Source: Escherichia coli
Lineage (GTDB): Bacteria; Pseudomonadota; Gammaproteobacteria; Enterobacterales; Enterobacteriaceae
Assembly (NCBI RefSeq): GCF_050320075.1
Contig: NZ_CP190018.1
Length of the DNA: 64,000 nt
Direction: 5' to 3' (one strand)
A program made the translations under genes and the position numbers. Below the pieces are notes generated by a model. That model saw nothing but the letters and a program-made list of their open reading frames with translations, was not told the origin of the DNA and did not search any database. Of this stretch, positions 47,200-57,160 are shown in pieces. Positions within the stretch are counted from its first letter, which is position 1, and every line of letters begins with the position of its first letter.

Positions 47200-47526
47200 A
47201 TGAATGCACAAACACGCCGCCGCGAACGTCGCGCAGAGAAACAGGCTCAATGGAAAGCAGCAAATCCCCTGTTGGTTGGGGTAAGCGCAAAACCAGTTAA
47301 CCGCCCAATTCTCTCGCTGAATCGCAAACCGAAATCACGAGTAGAAAGCGCACTGAATCCGATAGACCTTACGGTGCTGGCTGAATACCACGAACAGATT
47401 GAAAGCAACCTGCAACGTATTGAGCGCAAGAATCAGCGCACATGGTACAGCAAGCCACGCAGTGAAATGGGTGTGACTTGTGTTGGTCGCCAGAAAATGA
47501 AATTAGGCAGCAAACCACTTATTTGA
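47200..47526 (+). CDS. N: Antitermination protein N (lambda-type)
   Basis: 'MNAQTRRRERRAEKQAQWKAANPLLVGVSAKPVNRP...' near-identical to lambda N. Confidence 0.9.
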   Translation: MNAQTRRRERRAEKQAQWKAANPLLVGVSAKPVNRPILSLNRKPKSRVESALNPIDLTVLAEYHEQIESNLQRIERKNQRTWYSKPRSEMGVTCVGRQKMKLGSKPLI

Positions 47527-47534
47527 GGTGAGAT

Positions 47535-47786
47535 ATGGAGTTTCATGAAAGTGCGATTTGTGATTTTCGCGCTAACGCAAATTCAGTAAAACCACAGCCA
47601 ATTGCAGTTCTTTTTAAAACAATGGGGGCGTGGGCTGTTTTATGCTTCGCCGCTGACGACACTGACGCAAGAATGGCAATAGGCCAAGAGATGGAGATGG
47701 ACCCGACAAACGATGAATTCATAATTTATGGCGCTCCATCTAATTACTTACTTGATACCTGCAACATTTACAACAAGGCTGCCTGA
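47535..47786 (+). CDS. Hypothetical early-left protein (83 aa)
   Basis: ORF immediately after N. Confidence 0.45.
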   Translation: MEFHESAICDFRANANSVKPQPIAVLFKTMGAWAVLCFAADDTDARMAIGQEMEMDPTNDEFIIYGAPSNYLLDTCNIYNKAA

Positions 47787-48012
47787 TGGTGGCCTTTATT
47801 TTTGGCATAAACAACAGAATAAACACTGCACTGTGTATTCATTCCAACGAGTGAATACACGGAGCAATGTCGCTCGTAACTAAACAGGAGCCGACTTGTT
47901 CTGATTATTGGAAATCTTCTTTGCCCTCCAGTGTGGGGGCTTTTTTATATGCATACCAATAACGCTTCACTCGAGGCGTTTTCGTTATGCAATCAAACAG
48001 AAGGAGCATCCT

Positions 48013-48183
48013 ATGCAACAGTTCGCTATTGCAGGGGCGGCATCGGTTCGCCCTTTCAACCCGATTTTATCGGTACAGCATTCACGAAAAAATATTTTAA
48101 CCGGAGCAGACTTTAAACAACCAAGAATGAAAAGTTTGCTCGAAAAGCTTTGGGATATTTTGAAACAACAAGGCCGTCCATGA
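48013..48183 (+). CDS. cIII: CIII-like protein
   Basis: 56 aa from ATG with SD 'aaggag'; 'MQQFAIAG...SLLEKLWDILKQ' parallels lambda CIII. Confidence 0.6.
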   Translation: MQQFAIAGAASVRPFNPILSVQHSRKNILTGADFKQPRMKSLLEKLWDILKQQGRP

Positions 48184-48338
48184 GTTTTACGGATAACTGG
48201 TCAGACGAAGAATTCATTCGTCAGATGAAAGAATTAATCGGTAACGAAGGAGATATTCATGTCACTTGCAACCACAGTGAAGGAGAGCAAGTTACAGAGA
48301 CGCATGTACACGCAGAAAGCTCTCTGGTATCGCCATAA
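48180..48338 (+). CDS. Small early protein (52 aa; kil position), hypothetical
   Basis: ATGA overlap with cIII stop. Confidence 0.4.
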   Translation: MSFTDNWSDEEFIRQMKELIGNEGDIHVTCNHSEGEQVTETHVHAESSLVSP

Positions 48339-48439
48339 TGGCGACCGCGAAGGAATGCGGGTATGCCTTAATTTGTCCCGAGTCGAAGTATTAAATCAGC
48401 GTTATTTCCTTGGGCCATGTCCATTCTGAGAACAATCAT

Positions 48440-49045
48440 ATGAGCAAAGAATTTTACGCAAGACTGGCAGCTATTCAGGAGAATCTGAACGCGCCAAAGA
48501 ATCAGTACAACTCATTCGGTAAATATAAATACAGAAGCTGCGAAGACATTCTTGAAGGCGTTAAGCCGTTACTGAATGGCCTGTTTTTATCAATCAGCGA
48601 TGAAGTTGTGTTGATTGGTGATCGGTATTATGTGAAAGCCACGGCAACTATTACCGATGGCGAAAACAGTCATACGGCAACCGCACTAGCACGAGAGGAA
48701 GAAAGCAAGAAAGGAATGGATTCTGCACAAGTTACGGGGGCTACAAGCTCTTATGCACGCAAGTATTGCCTCAATGGTTTGTTCGGCATTGATGATGCGA
48801 AAGATGCAGATACCGACGAGCATAAACATCAGCAGAACGCAGCAGCAAAGCAATCAAAACCATCACCTACACCTGAACAGGTTCTAAAAGCATTCACTGA
48901 CGCAGCAATGCAGAAAAACACCGTAGAAGAGCTTAAACAGGCGTTCGCCAAAGCGTGGAAGATGCTCGAAGGGACGCCGGAGCAGCACAAAGCGCAGGAC
49001 GTTTACAACATCAGACGAGGCGAATTAGAAGGGGCAACTGCTTAA
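48440..49045 (+). CDS. Erf-like single-strand annealing recombinase (tentative)
   Basis: 201 aa from internal ATG; position upstream of ssb in recombination module; family recall only. Confidence 0.45.
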   Translation: MSKEFYARLAAIQENLNAPKNQYNSFGKYKYRSCEDILEGVKPLLNGLFLSISDEVVLIGDRYYVKATATITDGENSHTATALAREEESKKGMDSAQVTGATSSYARKYCLNGLFGIDDAKDADTDEHKHQQNAAAKQSKPSPTPEQVLKAFTDAAMQKNTVEELKQAFAKAWKMLEGTPEQHKAQDVYNIRRGELEGATA

Positions 49046-49428
49046 TGGCACATTCGATTACAGTAAGACTAAACAAGCCCGCAAGAGAGTTTCAGGCCGG
49101 GGAAAATATCGGATTCAACATCCGTGCTGGCGTTCAGTATTACGATCGCCAGACAAAAAAGAAAGAATGGACAAACTACAGCGCCGTTGTATTTGCCAAG
49201 CCGGGGGCGCAAGCGGATTACTACCGTAGTGTTCTTGTTGAAGGTGGCATTGTTGAAGTTACCGGAGAAAACATCAGGGTTGATGTTTATCAGGGGCAAA
49301 ATGGTCAATCAATCACTCTTGAATTACTGAATGCAAAGATTGGATTTGCAGCTTCAGGAAACAGCCAACAGCAGCAAAGTAGCAATCATCAAAATAATCC
49401 TGAATACGACGATTCAATTCCCTTCTAA
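49045..49428 (+). CDS. ssb: Phage single-stranded DNA-binding protein
   Basis: 127 aa; C-terminal acidic tip 'DDSIPF' characteristic of SSB. Confidence 0.6.
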   Translation: MAHSITVRLNKPAREFQAGENIGFNIRAGVQYYDRQTKKKEWTNYSAVVFAKPGAQADYYRSVLVEGGIVEVTGENIRVDVYQGQNGQSITLELLNAKIGFAASGNSQQQQSSNHQNNPEYDDSIPF

Positions 49429-49451
49429 ATTAGCAAAATAAGGATTCCATT

Positions 49452-49748
49452 ATGCCAGCGCCTCTGTATGGTGCGGATGACCCGCGCCGCTGTTCCGGCA
49501 ATTCCGTATCGGAGGTGCTGGATAAATTCAGAAAAAACTACGATCGGATAATGTCGCTACCGCAGGAAACGAAAAAGGAAAAGGAATTTCGCCACTGTAT
49601 ATGGCTTGCAGAGAAAGAAGAACGCGAGCTAATTTACCAGACATCAATCCGACCATTCCGCAAAGCCACATATACCCACTTCCCTGAATATATCGACCCG
49701 CGCCTGCGTAATTACCGCTCACGCTATGGCGCTATCAGTAATGACTGA
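49452..49748 (+). CDS. Hypothetical early protein (98 aa)
   Basis: ORF in early-left operon. Confidence 0.45.
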   Translation: MPAPLYGADDPRRCSGNSVSEVLDKFRKNYDRIMSLPQETKKEKEFRHCIWLAEKEERELIYQTSIRPFRKATYTHFPEYIDPRLRNYRSRYGAISND

Positions 49749-50049
49749 GGAATTAACAATGAAAACAATGAAGATAAACATCGACCTCGGAAAATACGTT
49801 ATTACCGGAACCAAACACGATCTGATTCTTAGTGAAAGAGGAATTATCAAAGAAGGCGAGAATGCAGGGAAAGAAACACTAAGCCGTATCGGTTATTACA
49901 GCAAGTTTGAGCATCTGGTTAAAGAATTATGCAACCGTGAAATCCTGTTATCTCAGGCGCAGACGCTACAGGATATTCAGCAACATATCGAGAATTTAGG
50001 TGTGTCACTTAGCATGGCTATTGACCAGTTCGTGGAGAGTAAATCATGA
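49726..50049 (+). CDS. Hypothetical early protein (107 aa)
   Basis: ORF in early-left operon. Confidence 0.45.
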
Positions 50050-50210
50050 GAGGACTTGCATACAATCCCGGCATTCTTCCGGCAGAAATGATTATTCGCC
50101 AACGCGTAAAGCCAATGCCATCGAGAGAGGAATTGCTCAAGAGAAATTCTTTTCCGTCAGTAAATCAAAACAAATATCTGAATGCGATGTGGCGGAGTGG
50201 GAAGAAATGA
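50046..50210 (+). CDS. Hypothetical small protein (54 aa), translationally coupled
   Basis: ATGA overlaps at both ends (50046 and 50207); not in ORF track. Confidence 0.35.
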
Positions 50211-50647
50211 AACAAATGTCACTAATTGAGATGGATGGTTTTCTGAAAGGTAAATGCATCCCAAGTGATTTAAAGGTTAACGAAACAAACGCTGAATATC
50301 TTGTCCGTAAGTTCGGTGAACTTGAATCAAAACTCAACGAGCAGCGTGAGTATTACGAAGGTGTTATCTCGGATGGGAGTAAGCGTATTGCAGAACTGGA
50401 AAGCAACGAAGTCCATGAAGACGGAAATCAGTTTCTTGTTGTTCGCCACCCCGGGAAATCTCCGGTAATCAAGCACTGCACTGGTGACCTGGAAGAGTTT
50501 CTGCGGAAGTTAATCGAACAAGACCCGTTAGTAACTATCGACATCATTACGCATCGCTATTACGGGATTGGCGGTCAATGGGTTCAGGATGCAGTTGAGT
50601 ATCTGCATATGATGTCTGAAGCTGGCATTCGCATCAAAGGAGAGTGA
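50207..50647 (+). CDS. Hypothetical early protein (146 aa)
   Basis: Internal ATG of the 215-aa track ORF, coupled to upstream small ORF. Confidence 0.45.
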
Positions 50648-50648
50648 T

Positions 50649-51728
50649 ATGAGCACTATCACTAAAGAACGTATCGAATTGTTCATTAAATCCCCGCTTG
50701 AAAACGGGCTTACCCGTGGCGAACAAATGGAACTGGCACGAATTGCACTGGCATCACTGGAACGCGAACAGATTCGCCACGAGCATGCCAAATGGTCTGA
50801 CTCCACATTTGGCTGCGTTGGCCCCATTGGTCCACTGAAACACCTCTCAAAAGAGGCACTGGAAGCCGCAGCCGAACCAGACGATCTTAGCGAGTGGGCT
50901 GATATGCAGTTTCTGTTGTGGGATGCACAGCGCCGTGCTGGCATCAGCGATGCTGAAATTACCGCTGCTATGGAAGATAAATTGAAGATCAACATGGAGC
51001 GCCAGTGGCCTGAACCAAAAGATGGTGAGCCTCGCTTGCACATTAAAGAACCCGGCAACTCTCCGGTAATTCCGGATGGTTTATCCACGGTATGCGCTGA
51101 GGCTTATCAGGTTGTAGGAGTTATGGCAGATGCGCTTGGTGTATTCGGTGATGCAGCAGTACAGAAAGTTCTGGATAACCTGTCACAGCAAAAACTTGTT
51201 CACAGAGATGTGCTGCCGTTCTCGCTTCCGGTGACTCCGGATGGTTGGATAAGCTGTAGTGAGCGAATGCCTGTAATTGGCGAGCTAAATTGGAGAACTA
51301 GTTTTCCTTTACTGGTTACGTGTGAGATCGGCGTTATACCTGCTTATTACGGCTTTGTGAGCGTTAATGGTGATAGGCATTATGGCTTTATGGAGAGTCT
51401 TAAATACGGAGACGATAACGGCAACCATCCTCAAACTAATGAATATGGTCTGATTAGCAATGTCACACACTGGATGCCACTACCAGAACGCCGCAGGAGT
51501 CGAACAGTGAATAATGCAGAGTTATTTCAGAAAATTTCGGCTCTCGCGACTGAATGCCACGCTATAGCATCTGAGCTTGATGTTGGCGATGAACGAACCG
51601 AGATGTTCGAAATATACAGTGTGCTGCGCAATCTCTGTCGGCGTGGCTACGCCACTCAAGTAGGGCGAATGACTAACCCACTACTCTCATTCTGTGATGA
51701 GGATGACTCGGATGAGGATGACGAATGA
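50649..51728 (+). CDS. Hypothetical early protein (359 aa), acidic C-terminal tail
   Basis: Large ea-region-type ORF; possible DUF550/DUF551-like prophage domains (unverified recall). Confidence 0.5.
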   Translation: MSTITKERIELFIKSPLENGLTRGEQMELARIALASLEREQIRHEHAKWSDSTFGCVGPIGPLKHLSKEALEAAAEPDDLSEWADMQFLLWDAQRRAGISDAEITAAMEDKLKINMERQWPEPKDGEPRLHIKEPGNSPVIPDGLSTVCAEAYQVVGVMADALGVFGDAAVQKVLDNLSQQKLVHRDVLPFSLPVTPDGWISCSERMPVIGELNWRTSFPLLVTCEIGVIPAYYGFVSVNGDRHYGFMESLKYGDDNGNHPQTNEYGLISNVTHWMPLPERRRSRTVNNAELFQKISALATECHAIASELDVGDERTEMFEIYSVLRNLCRRGYATQVGRMTNPLLSFCDEDDSDEDDE

Positions 51729-52108
51729 TGCATAAATCAGTAGCCGGTGAGTTTCAGAAGGAAGTCGATAATACCACTGATCTATTGGACGATATTTTAA
51801 GCATTCTCGCGCTGCTTGAGGCTGGCGATTGGTCAGAACATTGCACTAAAACAGAGCTAGGCGGTCGGCTTGAAAGAGAGATTACACGACTGATTAGCGA
51901 TGCCCAAAATGATTTGTCACCTGAGCATCTCCCCTGCGATGTAGTTCTTGTGCCAGGGATGAGGATACACGAAGGCGTCAGAACGAAAACATTATTAACC
52001 GCATTACAGAGGAGAGCCGAACTAAGCTCGCGGATAAAGTTGATGCCATCCAAAATATTTGATGTCGTCAAATTTACGCCATCGCAACATACTGAGAGAG
52101 ATAAATGA
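51725..52108 (+). CDS. Hypothetical early protein (127 aa)
   Basis: ATGA-coupled ORF. Confidence 0.45.
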   Translation: MMHKSVAGEFQKEVDNTTDLLDDILSILALLEAGDWSEHCTKTELGGRLEREITRLISDAQNDLSPEHLPCDVVLVPGMRIHEGVRTKTLLTALQRRAELSSRIKLMPSKIFDVVKFTPSQHTERDK

Positions 52109-52731
52109 GCACGGTAGCGAACGATCTCACAGAAGATATTCTCAATGAAATTATTGCTGGTGCAAATACCTCGCTTGAGCAACTTCTTGCGTTAGCACTG
52201 AGAGCCGAACGTCGAGACAGAAATCGTTTTTATGAGCGATTACCAGGGAAGCGACCAGATAGATCGGATGAAGAAGGTTGCGATATAGACTACATGGAGC
52301 CTTCAGAGATTTATCAACTTGGTAAAGATGACGGCTGGAACGCTTATCACGATGCTGTGATGAAGTTGGATGAAAAAGTTAAACCTCTTTCTCGACCGGT
52401 AGATCACGGTTTCCGCGATAACTGCGAATGCTCTAGTTGCCAGACCACGACCCGTATTTGTTCCGAATTGACAGATAAGTCCAGCCTAATCTACGAAGTT
52501 AATGTAGGCGGTAATACATGGGTCGAATGCACAAGAGCTGCATACGTAAGAGCAAAAGACAAGGGTGAATTAACCAGAGTTGTTACCAATCACCCAAATA
52601 ATGAGCTTAAAGATCACCAGATTCGAGAACTGGTGAACGAGTTGAGAGATATTGCGGTTCAGTACCACGGAACGCAGCAATTGCGGGAGAAGATTGCCAG
52701 AGCAGTGAACAACTCAGTCCGTAAAAAATAA
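52105..52731 (+). CDS. Hypothetical early protein (208 aa) with Cys cluster
   Basis: 'CECSSCQ...C...C' cluster; last gene before hairpin. Confidence 0.45.
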   Translation: MSTVANDLTEDILNEIIAGANTSLEQLLALALRAERRDRNRFYERLPGKRPDRSDEEGCDIDYMEPSEIYQLGKDDGWNAYHDAVMKLDEKVKPLSRPVDHGFRDNCECSSCQTTTRICSELTDKSSLIYEVNVGGNTWVECTRAAYVRAKDKGELTRVVTNHPNNELKDHQIRELVNELRDIAVQYHGTQQLREKIARAVNNSVRKK

Positions 52732-52748
52732 GCAATAGTACGATAAAG

Positions 52749-52773
52749 AGGCCCCATGCTCTTGATGGGGCCT
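52749..52773. terminator. Hairpin (candidate bidirectional terminator)
   Basis: Stem aggcccca/tggggcct with 9-nt loop after 208-aa gene. Confidence 0.4.
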
Positions 52774-53170
52774 GTAGCAACTAGCGTTATGGACGCTGGT
52801 TTACGTACTCAATGATCGCTTTGATAATCGCGAACATCGGCGGCACGATTTTGAACAGTAAGTTAACCATAACAGGCCTCACTTAGTTTTATCGCGCCTA
52901 GCTGCAAATACCTTTGGGCTTGCCTTTGCAGTTGCAATATCTGTAGTCGCCAGATACTTACGGCACGATTTCGAGTTAAGGTAAGGTTTTAGAGTCACCA
53001 AAAACCTGGACTTAAATCTTCTTTGAGAACAACGATGTTTAGTAAATGGTCATTATTACCTGGTATGACCACTCAACGTTTCTTGATGAATCCAGTACAT
53101 TCGGTTAATCTTAATTCAGTCGCCAGATACTTATGGCTCAGGAACAGAGCCGCAAACTCTGTTTCCTTTT

Positions 53171-53201
53171 AAAAAGCCCAGCCTAGTCAACTGGGCTTTT
53201 T
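53171..53201. terminator. Bidirectional rho-independent terminator in intergenic region
   Basis: 'aaaaagcccag-cctagtcaa-ctgggcttttt' hairpin with A-run and T-run. Confidence 0.6.
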
Positions 53202-53496
53202 AATGTCTATTTTTAACCCAATGAACCTTCAATACCGTAACATCAGTGTCTTGCGAATTAAGATAGTGTGTATAGGTTATGCATGCAAGTACATAACTCT
53301 GTGGATAACTCAGGAAGGAAAAAGTAGCTCCCGCGCAATTTAGGCCAGACAAGGCTTTCGCAAAAGTCAACAGAGAGAAAAAATTTGTTAAAAATAACGT
53401 TTGTTGGAATTGTATATATTTATGCCTTTCAATAGTTAGCATCTTATTAACATCTTTTTTAAGAGATAGAGTTCAAAAATATATAGCTTCAACATA

Positions 53497-53516
53497 TACT
53501 GTATGTGTATACAGTA
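53497..53516 (+). promoter_or_regulatory. LexA (SOS) box
   Basis: 'tactgtatgtgtatacagta' = CTGT-N8-ACAG palindrome 17 bp upstream of humD-like start. Confidence 0.75.
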
Positions 53517-53532
53517 TTAAGAGGCGAGTATT

Positions 53533-53922
53533 ATGGGCTTCCCTTCTCCTGCGGCGGATTATGCTGAGAGCCGTATTTCTCTTGATCAGCAGATAATTAG
53601 ACATCCTTCAGCGACCTACTTCATGAGGGCAGCTGATAGTCATCATCGTGAGGGAATATTACAGGGTGCATTGCTGGTGGTCGATTCCTCACTTACCCCG
53701 GTTGATGGTTCTCTGCTTGTATGCGCTCTGGATGGGGAATATCGCGTAAAAAGATACCGGAAGTATCCACGTCAGCATCTGGAGGATTTAAGAACCGGTA
53801 AGAAGGAAGCATTGCCAAAGGATGACGATGGATGCACGGGCAGCAATGCCGTGTTTGGTGTGATCACTCACATTATCAACGACGCAAGAAGTGGCGAGTT
53901 TGATGATTGTCCCGTGATGTAG
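53533..53922 (+). CDS. humD: UmuD'-like protein (HumD-type; begins at the UmuD cleavage site)
   Basis: 'MGFPSPAADYAESRISLDQQIIRHPSATYF' aligns with UmuD from Gly25; conserved Ser/Lys positions; LexA box upstream. Confidence 0.65.
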   Translation: MGFPSPAADYAESRISLDQQIIRHPSATYFMRAADSHHREGILQGALLVVDSSLTPVDGSLLVCALDGEYRVKRYRKYPRQHLEDLRTGKKEALPKDDDGCTGSNAVFGVITHIINDARSGEFDDCPVM

Positions 53923-54227
53923 GAGAACTGATTAGGCGGTGCAATGCACCGCCTTTTTATCACACTGCGCGGAATGCGATTTCGCCAGGTATTACTTCAC
54001 CTTGCCAATACATTTGGACAGCAGACTTTCGGCGATGCGTTGCACTTGTTGAGCAGATTCCAGAAATCAGAGATTCATTCGACAAGGTTGCAAAGCGCGT
54101 TCCGGCATTCAAAGGAATCCTCAACGAATGGGATTCCCTCGTTGATCTGTTGAAGTCTGAAATGAAGATACACGGAAACAAAGCACCAGAGACTTACAGA
54201 AGAATTAGCGAGTTACGCAAGGACTAA
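53907..54227 (+). pseudogene. Possible umuC-like (Y-family polymerase) N-terminal remnant
   Basis: Overlaps humD stop as umuC does; weak matches 'CNAPPFY' and 'DFRRCVALV' to UmuC N-terminus; only 106 codons. Confidence 0.3.
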
Positions 54228-54317
54228 CCACAGCCTCATACTCGATGAGGCCTGTTCATTGCTCAATGATATCCAGACCTACCGCAATAATACCAATCCA
54301 ATAAATGGAGATTCCAG

Positions 54318-54665
54318 GTGGAAGAAGAAATCTTCACTCGTGAAGAGGCAGCGTCGTATCTGAAGGTAGACAAAGGCACTATCACGCAGTGGATACGAAG
54401 TGGACGACTTCAGGCCGCAAAGATAAATCCAGATAAACCTAAAAGCCCATATCGCATTTGCAAGTCAGACTGCATTGCGGCGCTTAAGTCTGTGAGACAC
54501 AATAGCGCGGTGAATGCGGTTGATGTGCAGGAGGTTAAAGCATGTCAATCAAACTACGCGGTGGCACGTGGCACTGCGATTTCGTCGCGCCAGATGGATC
54601 AAGAGTTAGACGCTCTCTTGAAACATCGGACAAAAGGCAAGCGCAAGAACTTCACGATCGTCTGA
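54318..54665 (+). CDS. xis: Excisionase (Xis)
   Basis: HTH 'FTREEAASYLKVDKGTITQWIRSGRL' typical of excisionases; upstream of and overlapping int; true 3' end uncertain. Confidence 0.55.
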   Translation: MEEEIFTREEAASYLKVDKGTITQWIRSGRLQAAKINPDKPKSPYRICKSDCIAALKSVRHNSAVNAVDVQEVKACQSNYAVARGTAISSRQMDQELDALLKHRTKGKRKNFTIV

Positions 54666-55702
54666 AAGCAGAAGCGTGGAGAGTAAAAAATCTCGGGGAA
54701 TCACCGAAAAAGCTATTCAAGGAAGCCTGCATACGGTGGCTGCGTGAGAAATCGGATAAGAAGTCCATTGATGATGACAAGAGCATTATATCGTTCTGGA
54801 TGTTGCACTTCAGAGAAGCCATTCTCTCTGACATAACAACAGAAAAAATAATGGAGGCGGTAGATGGGATGGAAAACCGCCGCCATCGCCTGAACTGGGA
54901 GATGAGCCGGGACAGGTGTTTGCGACTTGGCAATCCGGTGCCGGAGTATAAACCAAAGCTTGCAAGCAAAGGAACGAAGACGAGGCATCTGGCAATACTT
55001 CGCGCCATTCTCAATATGGCTGTTGAATGGGGATGGCTTGACAGGGCACCCAAAATATCAACACCACGCGTTAAGAATGGACGCATCAGATGGCTTACAG
55101 AGGAGGAATCGAAGCGCCTGTTTGCAGAAATTGCTCCTCACTTCTTCCCTGTGGTCATGTTTGCAATCACGACAGGCCTTCGCCGTTCCAACGTTACAGA
55201 CCTTGAGTGGTCACAGGTCGATCTGGATAAGAAAATGGCATGGATACACCCTGATGAAACAAAAGCTGGCAATGCGATCGGAGTTCCTCTTAACGAAACC
55301 GCATGCCAGATATTAAGAAAACAGCAGGGGCTCCATAAGAGATGGGTATTTGTCCACACCAAACCTGCCTACCGAAGCGACGGAACAAAAACAGCAGCGG
55401 TAAGGAAGATGAGAACCGACAGCAACAAGGCATGGAAGGGAGCGTTAAAGCGGGCAGGCATTAGTAACTTCCGCTTCCATGATCTGAGGCATACCTGGGC
55501 AAGCTGGCTGGTTCAGTCCGGTGTCTCTCTTCTTGCACTTAAAGAGATGGGAGGATGGGAAACTCTCGAAATGGTTCAAAGATACGCCCACCTTTCAGCC
55601 GGGCATCTCACCGAGCACGCAAGCAAAATCGATGCGATTATAAGTCGCAATGGCACAAATACGGCACAAGAGGAGAACGTGGTGTATTTAAATATGGGGT
55701 AA
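54542..55702 (+). CDS. int: Lambdoid tyrosine integrase
   Basis: 386 aa; catalytic 'HDLRHT' and 'RYAHL' motifs; stop 14 bp from att core. Confidence 0.85.
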   Translation: MSIKLRGGTWHCDFVAPDGSRVRRSLETSDKRQAQELHDRLKAEAWRVKNLGESPKKLFKEACIRWLREKSDKKSIDDDKSIISFWMLHFREAILSDITTEKIMEAVDGMENRRHRLNWEMSRDRCLRLGNPVPEYKPKLASKGTKTRHLAILRAILNMAVEWGWLDRAPKISTPRVKNGRIRWLTEEESKRLFAEIAPHFFPVVMFAITTGLRRSNVTDLEWSQVDLDKKMAWIHPDETKAGNAIGVPLNETACQILRKQQGLHKRWVFVHTKPAYRSDGTKTAAVRKMRTDSNKAWKGALKRAGISNFRFHDLRHTWASWLVQSGVSLLALKEMGGWETLEMVQRYAHLSAGHLTEHASKIDAIISRNGTNTAQEENVVYLNMG

Positions 55703-55715
55703 CTACTTGATTTAA

Positions 55716-55762
55716 ATGGTGCCGATAATAGGAGTCGAACCTACGACCTTCGCATTACGAAT
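55716..55762. repeat. attL core: 47-bp identical to 16849-16895 (within tRNA-Thr 3' half)
   Basis: Exact 47-bp direct repeat. Confidence 0.85.
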
Positions 55763-55792
55763 GCGCTGCTCTACCAACTGAGCTATATCGGC
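55717..55792 (-). tRNA. thrW: tRNA-Thr
   Basis: Reverse complement reads 'GCCGATATAGCTCAGTTGGTAGAGCAGCGCATTCGTAATGCGAAGGTCGTAGGTTCGACTCCTATTATCGGCACCA' with CGT anticodon context. Confidence 0.85.
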
Positions 55793-55906
55793 CCTGAAAG
55801 GACATGTTCACGAACGTGAATCACGGTGGACAAGGTTAAAACTAACCGGGCGATGCGTCAATGGCCTTGTGAATCAAATGGCTACTTTTGCATCACCCGG
55901 TTTTAT

Positions 55907-57160
55907 TTACGCACGAATGGTGTAATCACCAATGCCGATCCACTTGTAAGTGGTCAGTGCTTCCAGCCCCATTGGGCCACGCGCGTGGAGTTTTTGTGTG
56001 CTTACCGCCACTTCCGCACCCAGACCAAACTGGCCGCCATCGGTAAAACGCGTAGAGGCGTTAACGTAAACAGCGGACGAATCCACTTCGTTAACAAAAC
56101 GCTGGGCGTTGCGCATATCGCGGGTCAGGATCGCATCGGAGTGTTGTGTGCCGTGTTCACGAATATGGGCGATGGCATCGTCAAGATCGCTGACGATTTT
56201 AACGTTCAAATCTAATGACAGAAACTCATCGTCATACTCTTCGGCTTTAACAGCCACCACCTTCGCGGGGCCTGCCTGCAACTGCGCCAGCGCAGCTACA
56301 TCTGCGTGTAATGCCACGCTGCTTTCCGCCATTTGCTTGCTTAATGCGGGCAGGAAGCTATCGGCGATGTTTTTATTTACCAGCAACGTTTCTACCGTAT
56401 TACATGTGCTCGGACGCTGAGTTTTTGCGTTGACGATTACTTTCAGGGCTTCAGCGATCTCTGCACTTTCATCAACGTAAATATGGCATACGCCTATACC
56501 GCCTGTGATCACCGGGATTGTCGACTGTTCGCGGCACAGCTTATGCAGGCCAGCGCCTCCACGCGGGATCAGCATGTCGATGTATTTATCCATACGCAGC
56601 ATTTCACTGACCAGCGCACGGTCAGGATTATCAATCGCCTGCACGGCACCCGCCGGTAAGCCGCAGGATTTCAGGGCGTCCTGAATCACCGCTACCGTTG
56701 CAGCGTTAGTGCGACAGGTTTCTTTGCCACCACGCAGGATCACCGCGTTACCGGTTTTCAGGCACAGCGAAGCGACATCAACCGTCACGTTCGGGCGCGC
56801 TTCATAAATCACGCCAATAACCCCCAGCGGTACGCGACGACGCTCAAGACGCAGGCCGCTGTCCAGTACGCCGCCATCGATTACCTGCCCCACCGGATCG
56901 GCGAGATTACACACCTGACGCACATCGTCGGCGATGCCTTTCAGCCGTGCGGGCGTCAGTGCCAGACGGTCAAGCATCGCTTCGCTAAGGCCATTGGCAC
57001 GCGCGTCAGCAACATCCTGGGCGTTAGCGTTGAGGATGATTTCGCTTTGTGCTTCCAGTTCATCGGCGATTTTTTCCAGCACGCGATTTTTTTCGCGGCT
57101 GGAGAGTTGCGCTAATTTATACGAGGCTTGCTTCGCGGCAATGCCCATTTGTTCCAGCAT
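55907..57160 (-). CDS. proA: Gamma-glutamyl phosphate reductase
   Basis: 417 aa, recognised as ProA by sequence. Confidence 0.95.

Follow-up and report, generated by a model that had tools for sequence, protein, structure and literature searches.

A putative type I toxin–antitoxin-like module on prophages, phage-plasmids, and conjugative plasmids of enteric bacteria

In the tisB/istR-1 toxin–antitoxin (TA) system, the 5′ end of the small RNA (sRNA) pairs far upstream of a sequestered ribosome binding site, an arrangement that follows a standby logic. The duplex spans ∼21 bp and the toxin is a small hydrophobic cationic peptide. The database T1TAdb places TisB/IstR-1 in a layout group together with ShoB/OhsC, Zor/Orz, and DinQ/AgrB, in which the antisense RNA (asRNA) lies 5′ of the mRNA without overlapping it (PMC8594479). 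The leader of dinQ uses mutually exclusive helices (PMC5066626), and dqlB/agrB on pOXA-48 is an experimentally proven addiction module (PMC12365149). For zorO/orzO, PMC5397157 describes a seed of ∼18–20 nt that pairs with a 5′ untranslated region (UTR) that is long and itself inhibits translation. Here we describe a locus of comparable design in a 64,000-nt stretch of Escherichia coli DNA (contig NZ_CP190018.1 of NCBI RefSeq assembly GCF_050320075.1), hereafter called the window. A 27-codon open reading frame (ORF) on its minus strand is probably the toxin-like half of a type I TA-like module of ∼460 bp (52740–53203) that is built like dinQ/agrB and tisB/istR-1. Judging from the sequences compared, the module most likely represents a new family of a known kind, type I TA, carried on prophages, phage-plasmids, and conjugative plasmids of enteric bacteria.

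The ORF (MVNLLFKIVPPMFAIIKAIIEYVNQRP) extends from an ATG at 52870 to a stop codon at 52787 on the minus strand, and its product belongs to what we term the B-type peptides. Upstream is a Shine–Dalgarno (SD) region, GTGAGG (52877–52882, minus strand), whose GAGG core (52877–52880) ends 6 nt before the ATG. A purine-rich SD is present at an equivalent spacing in all loci compared. A hairpin of nine pairs, six of which are G-C, starts 13 nt past the stop codon (52749–52773; directly followed by CTTTATCGTA, also given as CUUUAUCGU), and a terminator scan identifies this hairpin and its U-rich tail as a putative intrinsic terminator of the toxin mRNA (52740–52773, minus strand). A GC-rich hairpin of different sequence occupies the equivalent position after the last ORF in every related locus. 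The initial annotation had proposed the minus-strand ORF, the SD, and the hairpin, all of which are present, and its distance of 8 nt between SD and start codon is approximately right, since the spacing of the core is that of a normal SD.

The size of the ORF is not what makes it significant. Eighty-three ORFs of at least 20 amino acids overlap the surrounding 5 kb, and therefore a frame of 27 codons is by itself no more than chance would provide. Rather, the ORF is significant because it is conserved across related loci (individual loci are designated by L numbers below). Conservation among related prophages had been suggested as a check, and the ORF, the SD, and the start codon were found to be kept in every related locus. 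A 31-amino-acid version that begins at an in-frame GTG (52882), as reported by the ORF lister, was rejected because this GTG belongs to the SD and because the tandem second ORFs seen elsewhere have no such codon.

Patterns of sequence variation indicate that the ORF evolves as a coding sequence under purifying selection. Variable columns fall at the first, second, and third codon positions 14, 4, and 21 times among B-type sequences and 11, 5, and 20 times among A-type sequences (see below), which is an excess at third positions. The ratio of nonsynonymous to synonymous differences (pN/pS) is 0.06–0.49 across the family and 0.07–0.49 for the B-type, at pairwise pS values of up to 0.9. In L004, the ATG start is replaced by GTG at the same codon.

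The family comprises two paralogous types of peptide that share the motif M..LL.K...[PH]P....I....[ED]Y followed by a polar tail; their DNA has diverged and their length and motif have been kept. The A-type reads M(QM)[FL]LL..KLA[HYQ]P.... and the B-type, to which the window peptide belongs, reads M[VL][NST]LL[FL]K[IV][VL]PP.... Outside the E. coli group, a single mRNA in most loci carries A and then B in tandem, each with its own SD (L006, at 1300–1500, for example, and L007, L023, L029, L043, L044, L046, and L047). The window and its close relatives carry only a B-type ORF, which in the window is joined straight to the leader. Only an A-type ORF is present in L005 and L008. Family peptides are 25–30 amino acids long, have a net positive charge, and reach 1.9–2.5 in hydropathy over their best 15 residues, making them hydrophobic enough for a membrane helix. 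The corresponding values for the window peptide are a best 15-residue hydropathy of 1.88, a net charge of +2, and a grand average of hydropathy (GRAVY) of 0.86. An exact look-up of the peptide in a large protein database returned only a “hypothetical protein” from a Podoviridae metagenome assembly. Elsewhere in the protein data, a 28-amino-acid A-type peptide shares a 90%-identity cluster with a 454-amino-acid protein (P0003/P0004), and P0004 is probably a gene-calling fusion.

The second gene of the module specifies a putative antitoxin-like sRNA of ∼84 nt (53118–53203, plus strand). It is located ∼250 nt upstream of the ORF, is transcribed divergently, and does not overlap the toxin mRNA. 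From its 5′ end, the sRNA consists of an unstructured or weakly structured seed (53118–53137), a hairpin (53141–53166), an A/U linker, and a strong terminator (53171–53201). Its fold has an energy of –34 kcal/mol (z = –5.6), and compensatory changes are present at six pairs of the hairpin and terminator. When 13 sRNAs from other genera, none of them of the window type, were used to build a covariance model, it matched 53118–53203 from end to end (76 bits, E = 9e–17) and found no other copy besides the seed repeat described below. The sRNA is preceded by a predicted σ70-type promoter (53083–53111, plus strand) that was read from the sequence, with a –35 element TTGATG (53083–53088), a 17-nt spacer, a –10 element TAATCT (53106–53111), and an A at +1 (53118). 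All loci have the same arrangement at this site, namely a TTGAWG-like element, 17–18 nt, TAAKCT, 6 nt, and A. This promoter is situated 108 nt upstream of the predicted 5′ end of the toxin mRNA, and it was missed by a generic promoter scanner (score of 4 + 4 out of 12, threshold 9).

The search for an antisense RNA that the initial annotation recommended was therefore fruitful in that a partner RNA gene exists, although this partner is not a cis-antisense RNA and instead is a divergent, nonoverlapping sRNA that pairs with the leader. A promoter-like site, TTTACG-17-GATAAT, is present inside the ORF on the opposite strand (52800–52828, plus strand) and could give a cis-antisense RNA. The promoter scan yielded two sites of this kind against a chance expectation of 2.3, and the one at 52800–52828 is not well conserved in L003. 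The terminator of the sRNA (53169–53203) is symmetric (TTAAAAAGCCCAG...CTGGGCTTTTTAA), and so could also end minus-strand transcription that enters from the humD promoter region, insulating the toxin gene from upstream read-through.

The pairing between the two RNAs is evident from a 20-nt direct repeat, detected by a repeat finder as AGTCGCCAGATACTTACGGC at 52945–52964 and AGTCGCCAGATACTTATGGC at 53118–53137, whose copies are 173 bp apart. The 20-mer AGTCGCCAGATACTTAYGGC has exactly two matches in the 64 kb even when three mismatches are allowed, and none are expected by chance. One copy forms the sRNA seed, and the other, read on the minus strand, is the predicted target site GCCGUAAGUAUCUGGCGACU in the toxin leader, 75 nt upstream of the ATG. 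The target is 69–75 nt before the first AUG in all loci. The single difference between the two window copies gives a U:G pair in the sRNA–mRNA duplex.

With the A found 7 nt past the –10 element taken as the anchor of every sRNA, 13 different pairings of seed and target can be distinguished. They come from Escherichia, Citrobacter, Enterobacter, Klebsiella, Kosakonia, Atlantibacter, and Cronobacter. Over sRNA positions 2–20, these 13 variants contain 237 Watson–Crick pairs, 10 G:U pairs, and no mismatches. Of the 19 positions, five are invariant, three change in just one of the two partners and yield G:U each time, and 11 change in both. Among the seeds are AGUCGCCAGAUACUUAUGGC (window), AGUCGCCAGAUACAUUYGGC, AGCUGCCAGAUACAUUCGGC, AGCUGGCAGACACAUACGGCG (L043/L044), and AGUCGCCGGUUAACAACGGCACG (L047), and noncognate combinations of seed and target have up to eight mismatches. 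In all 10 cases where the two DNA copies differ, the outcome is an sRNA-U:mRNA-G or sRNA-G:mRNA-U pair, and the equally likely transitions that would produce C:A or A:C do not occur. This bias is expected of an RNA–RNA duplex rather than of a repeated DNA site.

The target is embedded in a leader with a conserved architecture. A conserved block begins at ∼53010, which suggests that the transcription start site of the toxin mRNA is at about 53005–53012. Consensus folding with RNAalifold, applied to 12 and then to 16 leader sequences, yields a 5′ hairpin and, after it, the helices P1, P2, and P3 arranged as a three-way junction (all coordinates are on the minus strand). The 5′-proximal hairpin (AGGUUU.../...AAACCU, 52984–53007) shows UA-to-CG and AU-to-GC pair changes. 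P1 joins element S1 (UCGUGCC, 52962–52968), which overlaps the 5′ end of the sRNA target, to element S2 (GGCGCGA, 52892–52898); four of its seven pairs are changed on both sides, and 96.4% of cells are paired. P2 (AGUAUC/GAUAUU, 52936–52958) has a loop, UGGCGACUACA, that is the 3′ half of the target and thus the part presented to the 5′ end of the sRNA. Four of seven P2 pairs are changed on both sides (99.1% of cells paired), and where the seed differs the stem differs too, reading GUGUC/GACAC in L043 and GUUAAC/GUUAAC in L047. P3 (CUGCAAA...UUUGCAG, 52902–52931) is the most conserved block of the family and occurs in a compensatory version, CUGUAAA/UUUACAG, in L043 and L044. Over the whole junction, 97.8% of cells are paired and nine of 23 pairs are changed on both sides. 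None of 500 shuffled controls reaches any of five measures, and slid controls are only 29%–49% paired. A pairing of the 5′ segment CCUUAC with the SD was also considered and abandoned, as it is only partly conserved on inspection by hand and RNAalifold prefers the 5′ hairpin.

In many loci, the segment GGCGCGA that forms the 3′ arm of P1 can also close a hairpin around the SD and AUG by pairing with a segment ∼40 nt into the ORF. This partner is CUCGCGC in A-type ORFs and AUCGUGCC in the window (element S3, 52842–52849, minus strand), where it repeats a leader element, covers the codons Ile-Val-Pro, and is complementary to S2. Minimum free energy (MFE) folds pair S3 with 52891–52898, and equivalent pairings are seen in several loci with either an A-type or a B-type ORF in first position. 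S3 may have a functional role. The SD and AUG are located in a predicted local hairpin in most loci, with a probability of the SD being paired of 0.35–0.98 (z from –0.3 to –3.6). For the window this probability is 0.98.

By analogy with the characterized systems, the module could operate as follows. A weakly promoted minus-strand mRNA of ∼265 nt would begin with a leader of ∼135 nt, comprising the 5′ hairpin and then the P1/P2/P3 junction, and would continue with the SD and AUG in their local hairpin, the 27 codons for a small hydrophobic cationic peptide, and the terminator. The plus-strand sRNA of ∼84 nt would be produced from its well-conserved σ70 promoter, and its single-stranded 5′ end would pair with the loop and 5′ flank of P2 to form a duplex of 20 bp that lies 75 nt upstream of the ATG. 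As in tisB/istR-1, dinQ/agrB, and zorO/orzO, this duplex could keep ribosomes from loading or standing by upstream of the structured initiation region. It might also, or instead, serve as a substrate for RNase III, so that the peptide would stay off as long as the sRNA is made. The sRNA would in addition cover the 3′ end of the P1 5′ arm, which could unzip P1 and free GGCGCGA to pair with AUCGUGCC, thereby locking the SD/AUG hairpin. The logic of this step would be that of the mutually exclusive helices of dinQ (PMC5066626). If the element were lost or sRNA synthesis stopped, the peptide would enter the inner membrane, the cell would be arrested or killed, and the prophage or plasmid would thus be stabilized. 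We infer transcription, toxicity, repression, the involvement of RNase III, and a biological role of this kind; the two genes, the pairing, the RNA structures, and coding selection are shown computationally. The natural covariation of seed and target lends indirect support to repression by pairing.

Several observations weigh against this interpretation. When the target was blocked in a thermodynamic test, SD accessibility was unchanged in 10 of 12 loci, rising in L016 and falling in L008, and the closed SD/AUG hairpin is already the MFE state. The switch among S1, S2, and S3 is accordingly hypothetical and, if real, must be kinetic or co-transcriptional. A convincing toxin promoter was not found in the window copy: the generic scan returned none, and the best candidates are low-scoring with a poor –35 element. 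The GRAVY of 0.86 is below the values of DinQ, TisB, ShoB, ZorO, and Ibs (1.4–2.4), and a Pro-Pro sequence falls in the middle of the predicted helix. Finally, the parallel change of the two DNA repeats could partly reflect gene conversion. With regard to the promoter, a position weight matrix scan gives one weak but positionally recurrent candidate just upstream of the predicted toxin mRNA 5′ end, and L044 has a perfect TTGACA at the equivalent place. Just upstream of this predicted promoter, two or three tandem copies of AACGGTTTAG(AAC) occur in L013, L016, L006, L023, and L046. The repeats, which the window lacks, lie between the sRNA promoter and the toxin leader and could be a regulator site.

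The original suggestion of a type I toxin-like peptide is nevertheless strengthened by a partner sRNA that pairs with the leader, by purifying selection, and by the family character of a hydrophobic, net-positive peptide of 25–30 amino acids. Whether such a peptide must be a toxin is a separate matter, since the same design could serve an sRNA-tuned small membrane protein that is a benign modulator, for example of a transporter or of a step in phage or plasmid entry or exclusion. The hydrophobicity below that of classical type I toxins and the conserved [PH]-P kink are compatible with such a function, and many small membrane proteins are nontoxic regulators according to a review (PMC12648545). 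We consider this explanation unlikely because the layout, in which the sRNA promoter is strong and looks constitutive, the toxin promoter is weak, the structured leader is long, and the SD is sequestered, is a type I TA signature (PMC8594479). Moreover, the module is found in plasmid maintenance or accessory regions beside vapBC, phd, and rep genes, and the seeds have diversified into mutually incompatible classes, as would be expected of addiction modules. Two further explanations fare much worse. The ORF might be a chance frame inside a conserved noncoding RNA, such as a sponge or decoy for the sRNA, an idea that gains something from the abundance of short ORFs noted above and from a leader that is more conserved than the ORF. 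This is very improbable given the codon-position patterns, the low pN/pS at pS values as high as 0.9, the preserved SD spacing, the exchange of ATG for GTG at the start codon, and the retention of length and motif by two paralogous peptide types. Similarly, direct repeats in an intergenic region, adjoining in some loci a gene annotated as a DNA-binding protein, could be viewed as DNA-level sites (operators or iterons), with the hairpins as ordinary terminators of neighboring genes and no RNA–RNA interaction. Such a view is hardly tenable when every difference between the copies preserves G:U pairing, the start of one copy is in every case exactly 7 nt past a conserved –10 element and so corresponds to a transcript 5′ end, the other copy is part of a covarying RNA hairpin, and the neighboring genes differ between loci.

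The module could also be a highly diverged member of DinQ/Dql–AgrB instead of a separate family. The architecture and dimensions are the same: K-12 dinQ encodes a 27-amino-acid peptide, its agrB target is 77 nt upstream of the AUG (75 nt in the window), and agrB is 82 nt in length (82–86 nt for the sRNAs compared here). The mutually-exclusive-helix logic of the leader is likewise shared (PMC5066626), the N-terminus MVNLL resembles the MINLL of DqlB, and an alignment of the sRNA with agrB gives z = 4.3. The Rfam AgrB model (RF02891) matches the window sRNA at 27.6 bits, and the hairpin loop AGAGCCGCAAACUC of the window resembles AGAGCCACCAACUC of AgrB. However, this score is below the gathering score of 40, the other variants have no AgrB match, and dqlB-linked sRNAs used as a positive control score 47.8 and 57.9 bits. 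The NCBIfam models toxin_DinQ (NF041472) and DinQ_rel/DqlB (NF041473) do not match any of five family peptides at E ≤ 10, whereas DinQ itself scores 54 bits. BLASTP of the window peptide against DqlB gives nothing at E ≤ 100, and a hidden Markov model (HMM) of the family peptides scores none of the known toxins, DinQ, TisB, ZorO, and ShoB families included, above shuffled decoys. Similarity of the leader to the dinQ mRNA is the criterion of Kristiansen et al. 2016 (PMC5066626). A search with nhmmer using the dinQ mRNA against 26 family loci has a best E of 0.076, at an off-register, nonequivalent place, compared to 1e–32 for the dqlB control (dqlB loci were obtained by BLAST). The reverse search, with a family profile against dinQ, found no match. 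Motifs that appear by eye to be shared with dinQ/dql (AAGUCCNGG, GGUGNUGC, and the loop GGCAGUGUAAGAG) were set aside and serve only as a lead, since the global alignment gives z = –0.8 and nhmmer is nonsignificant in both directions. The absence of a LexA box from the module also argues against membership. Every sequence test for membership in DinQ/AgrB has failed, and DinQ/AgrB is the system whose architecture is closest. Membership is thus improbable, and a distant common ancestry, hinted at by the sub-threshold AgrB match, the similar loop, and the MxNLL N-terminus, is possible.

The statement of the initial annotation that the ORF matches no named family agrees with broader searches as well. 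The family peptides have no match in Pfam, NCBIfam, PHROGs, or PADLOC, and Rfam scans of window positions 50000–56000 and of eight related or comparison loci (including L005–L008, L016, and L029) gave nothing above the gathering score for this family. Sub-threshold matches to RNAI occur in the window and other loci, and L006 has a sub-threshold match to OrzO-P (34.2 bits, gathering score 60) where the window has none. Neither a name nor a publication came to light in the literature for the peptide, its sRNA, or the seed strings, in a comparison that did not reach the T1TAdb entries or the ∼2000 unnamed candidates of Fozo 2010.

The window contains a lambdoid (P22-like) prophage at tRNA-Thr, adjoining proA. 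The module is within an 800-bp stretch (52732–53532) that separates a gene for a 208-amino-acid hypothetical protein from the HumD/S24 peptidase gene (53533–53922) and that holds no RefSeq features. An 80-amino-acid ORF between the sRNA terminator and the humD promoter (53200–53442, minus strand) is low in complexity, unannotated in RefSeq, and probably spurious. A LexA box, TACTGTATGTGTATACAGTA, is located at 53498–53517 upstream of the HumD/S24 peptidase gene. The proximity to a LexA-controlled gene that had been pointed out is therefore real, but the link is incidental, because the module travels without humD in other replicons. LexA/SOS control of the toxin was ruled out: the box belongs to humD, and no LexA box (CTG-N10-CAG) is present in the module in any of 12 loci scanned, including the window.

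The same 800-bp stretch is found on phage-plasmids of ∼100–120 kb, such as phage Cyrano and pECOH89, and most E. coli copies reside on phage-plasmids of this kind. Among 5426 complete E. coli genomes, 113 (∼2%) carry the cassette, with 105 copies on plasmids and nine on chromosomes, and in none of them is it annotated in RefSeq. BLAST against plasmids returned 98 records, including versions in Citrobacter and Enterobacter that are 68%–83% identical. A scan for the conserved leader block (P3 pattern) identified 27 viral contigs and two genome contigs, and tblastn with the peptides added further relatives, which reside on IncF-type conjugative plasmids of Klebsiella, Kosakonia, Atlantibacter, Cronobacter, Leclercia, and Enterobacter. 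The order of parts in every locus examined is sRNA terminator, hairpin, seed, sRNA promoter, ∼100–130 nt, toxin leader, SD, ORF or ORFs, and terminator. Flanking genes vary by locus and include those for HumD, RepB plus phd, a DNA-binding protein, vapBC, SIR2, Hha, and a DsbA-like protein. These varied neighbors indicate that the ∼460-bp cassette is a conserved mobile unit. Two of the loci deserve separate comment. In L037 (JAEWTL010000044.1, 29.6 kb, from a metagenome-assembled genome labeled “Bacillota bacterium”), the module is identical over the ∼550 nt compared to that of E. coli plasmid pTB212 (L003), and the contig is probably mis-binned enterobacterial phage-plasmid DNA. In L002 (plasmid NZ_CP117972.1, 7361–10652), a phage-plasmid with the same region, chromosomal-type apbC and metG genes are directly after humD.

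The prophage has an N/pL early-left operon on the plus strand (∼47200–54500), and the hairpin at 52749–52773 has no T-run on this strand. N-antiterminated transcription would run antisense through the toxin gene and in the sense direction through the sRNA gene, and this possibly couples toxin silencing to lytic development. A wider proposal would incorporate this idea, although we hold it only tentatively and find it less convincing than the assignment to a type I TA-like module. According to this proposal, the loci would form an undescribed type I TA family of enterobacterial mobile elements whose specificity is carried entirely by an evolvable 20-nt seed, with at least four or five seed classes that are partly to strongly mismatched. 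The ancestral form would have had two paralogous membrane peptides on one sRNA-controlled mRNA. The module would serve for addiction or for competition among related phage-plasmids, prophages, and IncF plasmids, and divergence of the seeds would allow elements residing in one cell to evade the antitoxin of the other. Antisense transcription from the N-antiterminated early-left operon of the lambdoid prophage would couple toxin silencing to the lytic program.

The cassette represents an annotation gap in ∼2% of complete E. coli genomes, mostly on phage-plasmids that also spread resistance genes, and its relatives occur in Klebsiella, Enterobacter, Citrobacter, Cronobacter, and others, where conjugative IncF plasmids carry them. 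Should the cassette be an addiction module, it would help to explain how the carrier elements are stably maintained, and it would be a target for plasmid curing, as shown for dqlB/agrB on pOXA-48. The natural series of matched seed/target pairs, together with the covarying leader, provides a system for studying how translation is shut off far upstream of a start codon. The family also adds peptide and RNA models that are missing from current annotation pipelines.

Among the described systems, the closest in design are dinQ/agrB and dqlB/agrB. As in those systems, a single-helix hydrophobic peptide of 27–31 amino acids is encoded behind a long structured leader, and both plasmids and chromosomes serve as carriers. 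The divergent, nonoverlapping sRNA of ∼82–86 nt, whose 5′ part recurs in the DNA as a direct repeat within the leader ∼75 nt before the AUG, is a further likeness to dinQ/agrB. Duplexes in this family are 20–25 bp rather than the 31–35 bp of dinQ/agrB, a single sRNA copy takes the place of agrA plus agrB, and most members encode two paralogous peptides in tandem. Control by LexA is a feature of dinQ proper, whereas the modules of the 12 loci described above have no LexA box. The zorO/orzO and shoB/ohsC systems share the 5′-located, nonoverlapping asRNA, the seed of ∼18–20 nt, and the long 5′ UTR, but their peptides are unrelated to those of this family. With tisB/istR-1, the module has in common a divergent sRNA that pairs far upstream, the length of the duplex, and the type of peptide, and a standby mechanism may be shared as well. 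In contrast, tisB is chromosomal and controlled by LexA, and it has no sequence or family match to the mobile cassettes described here.

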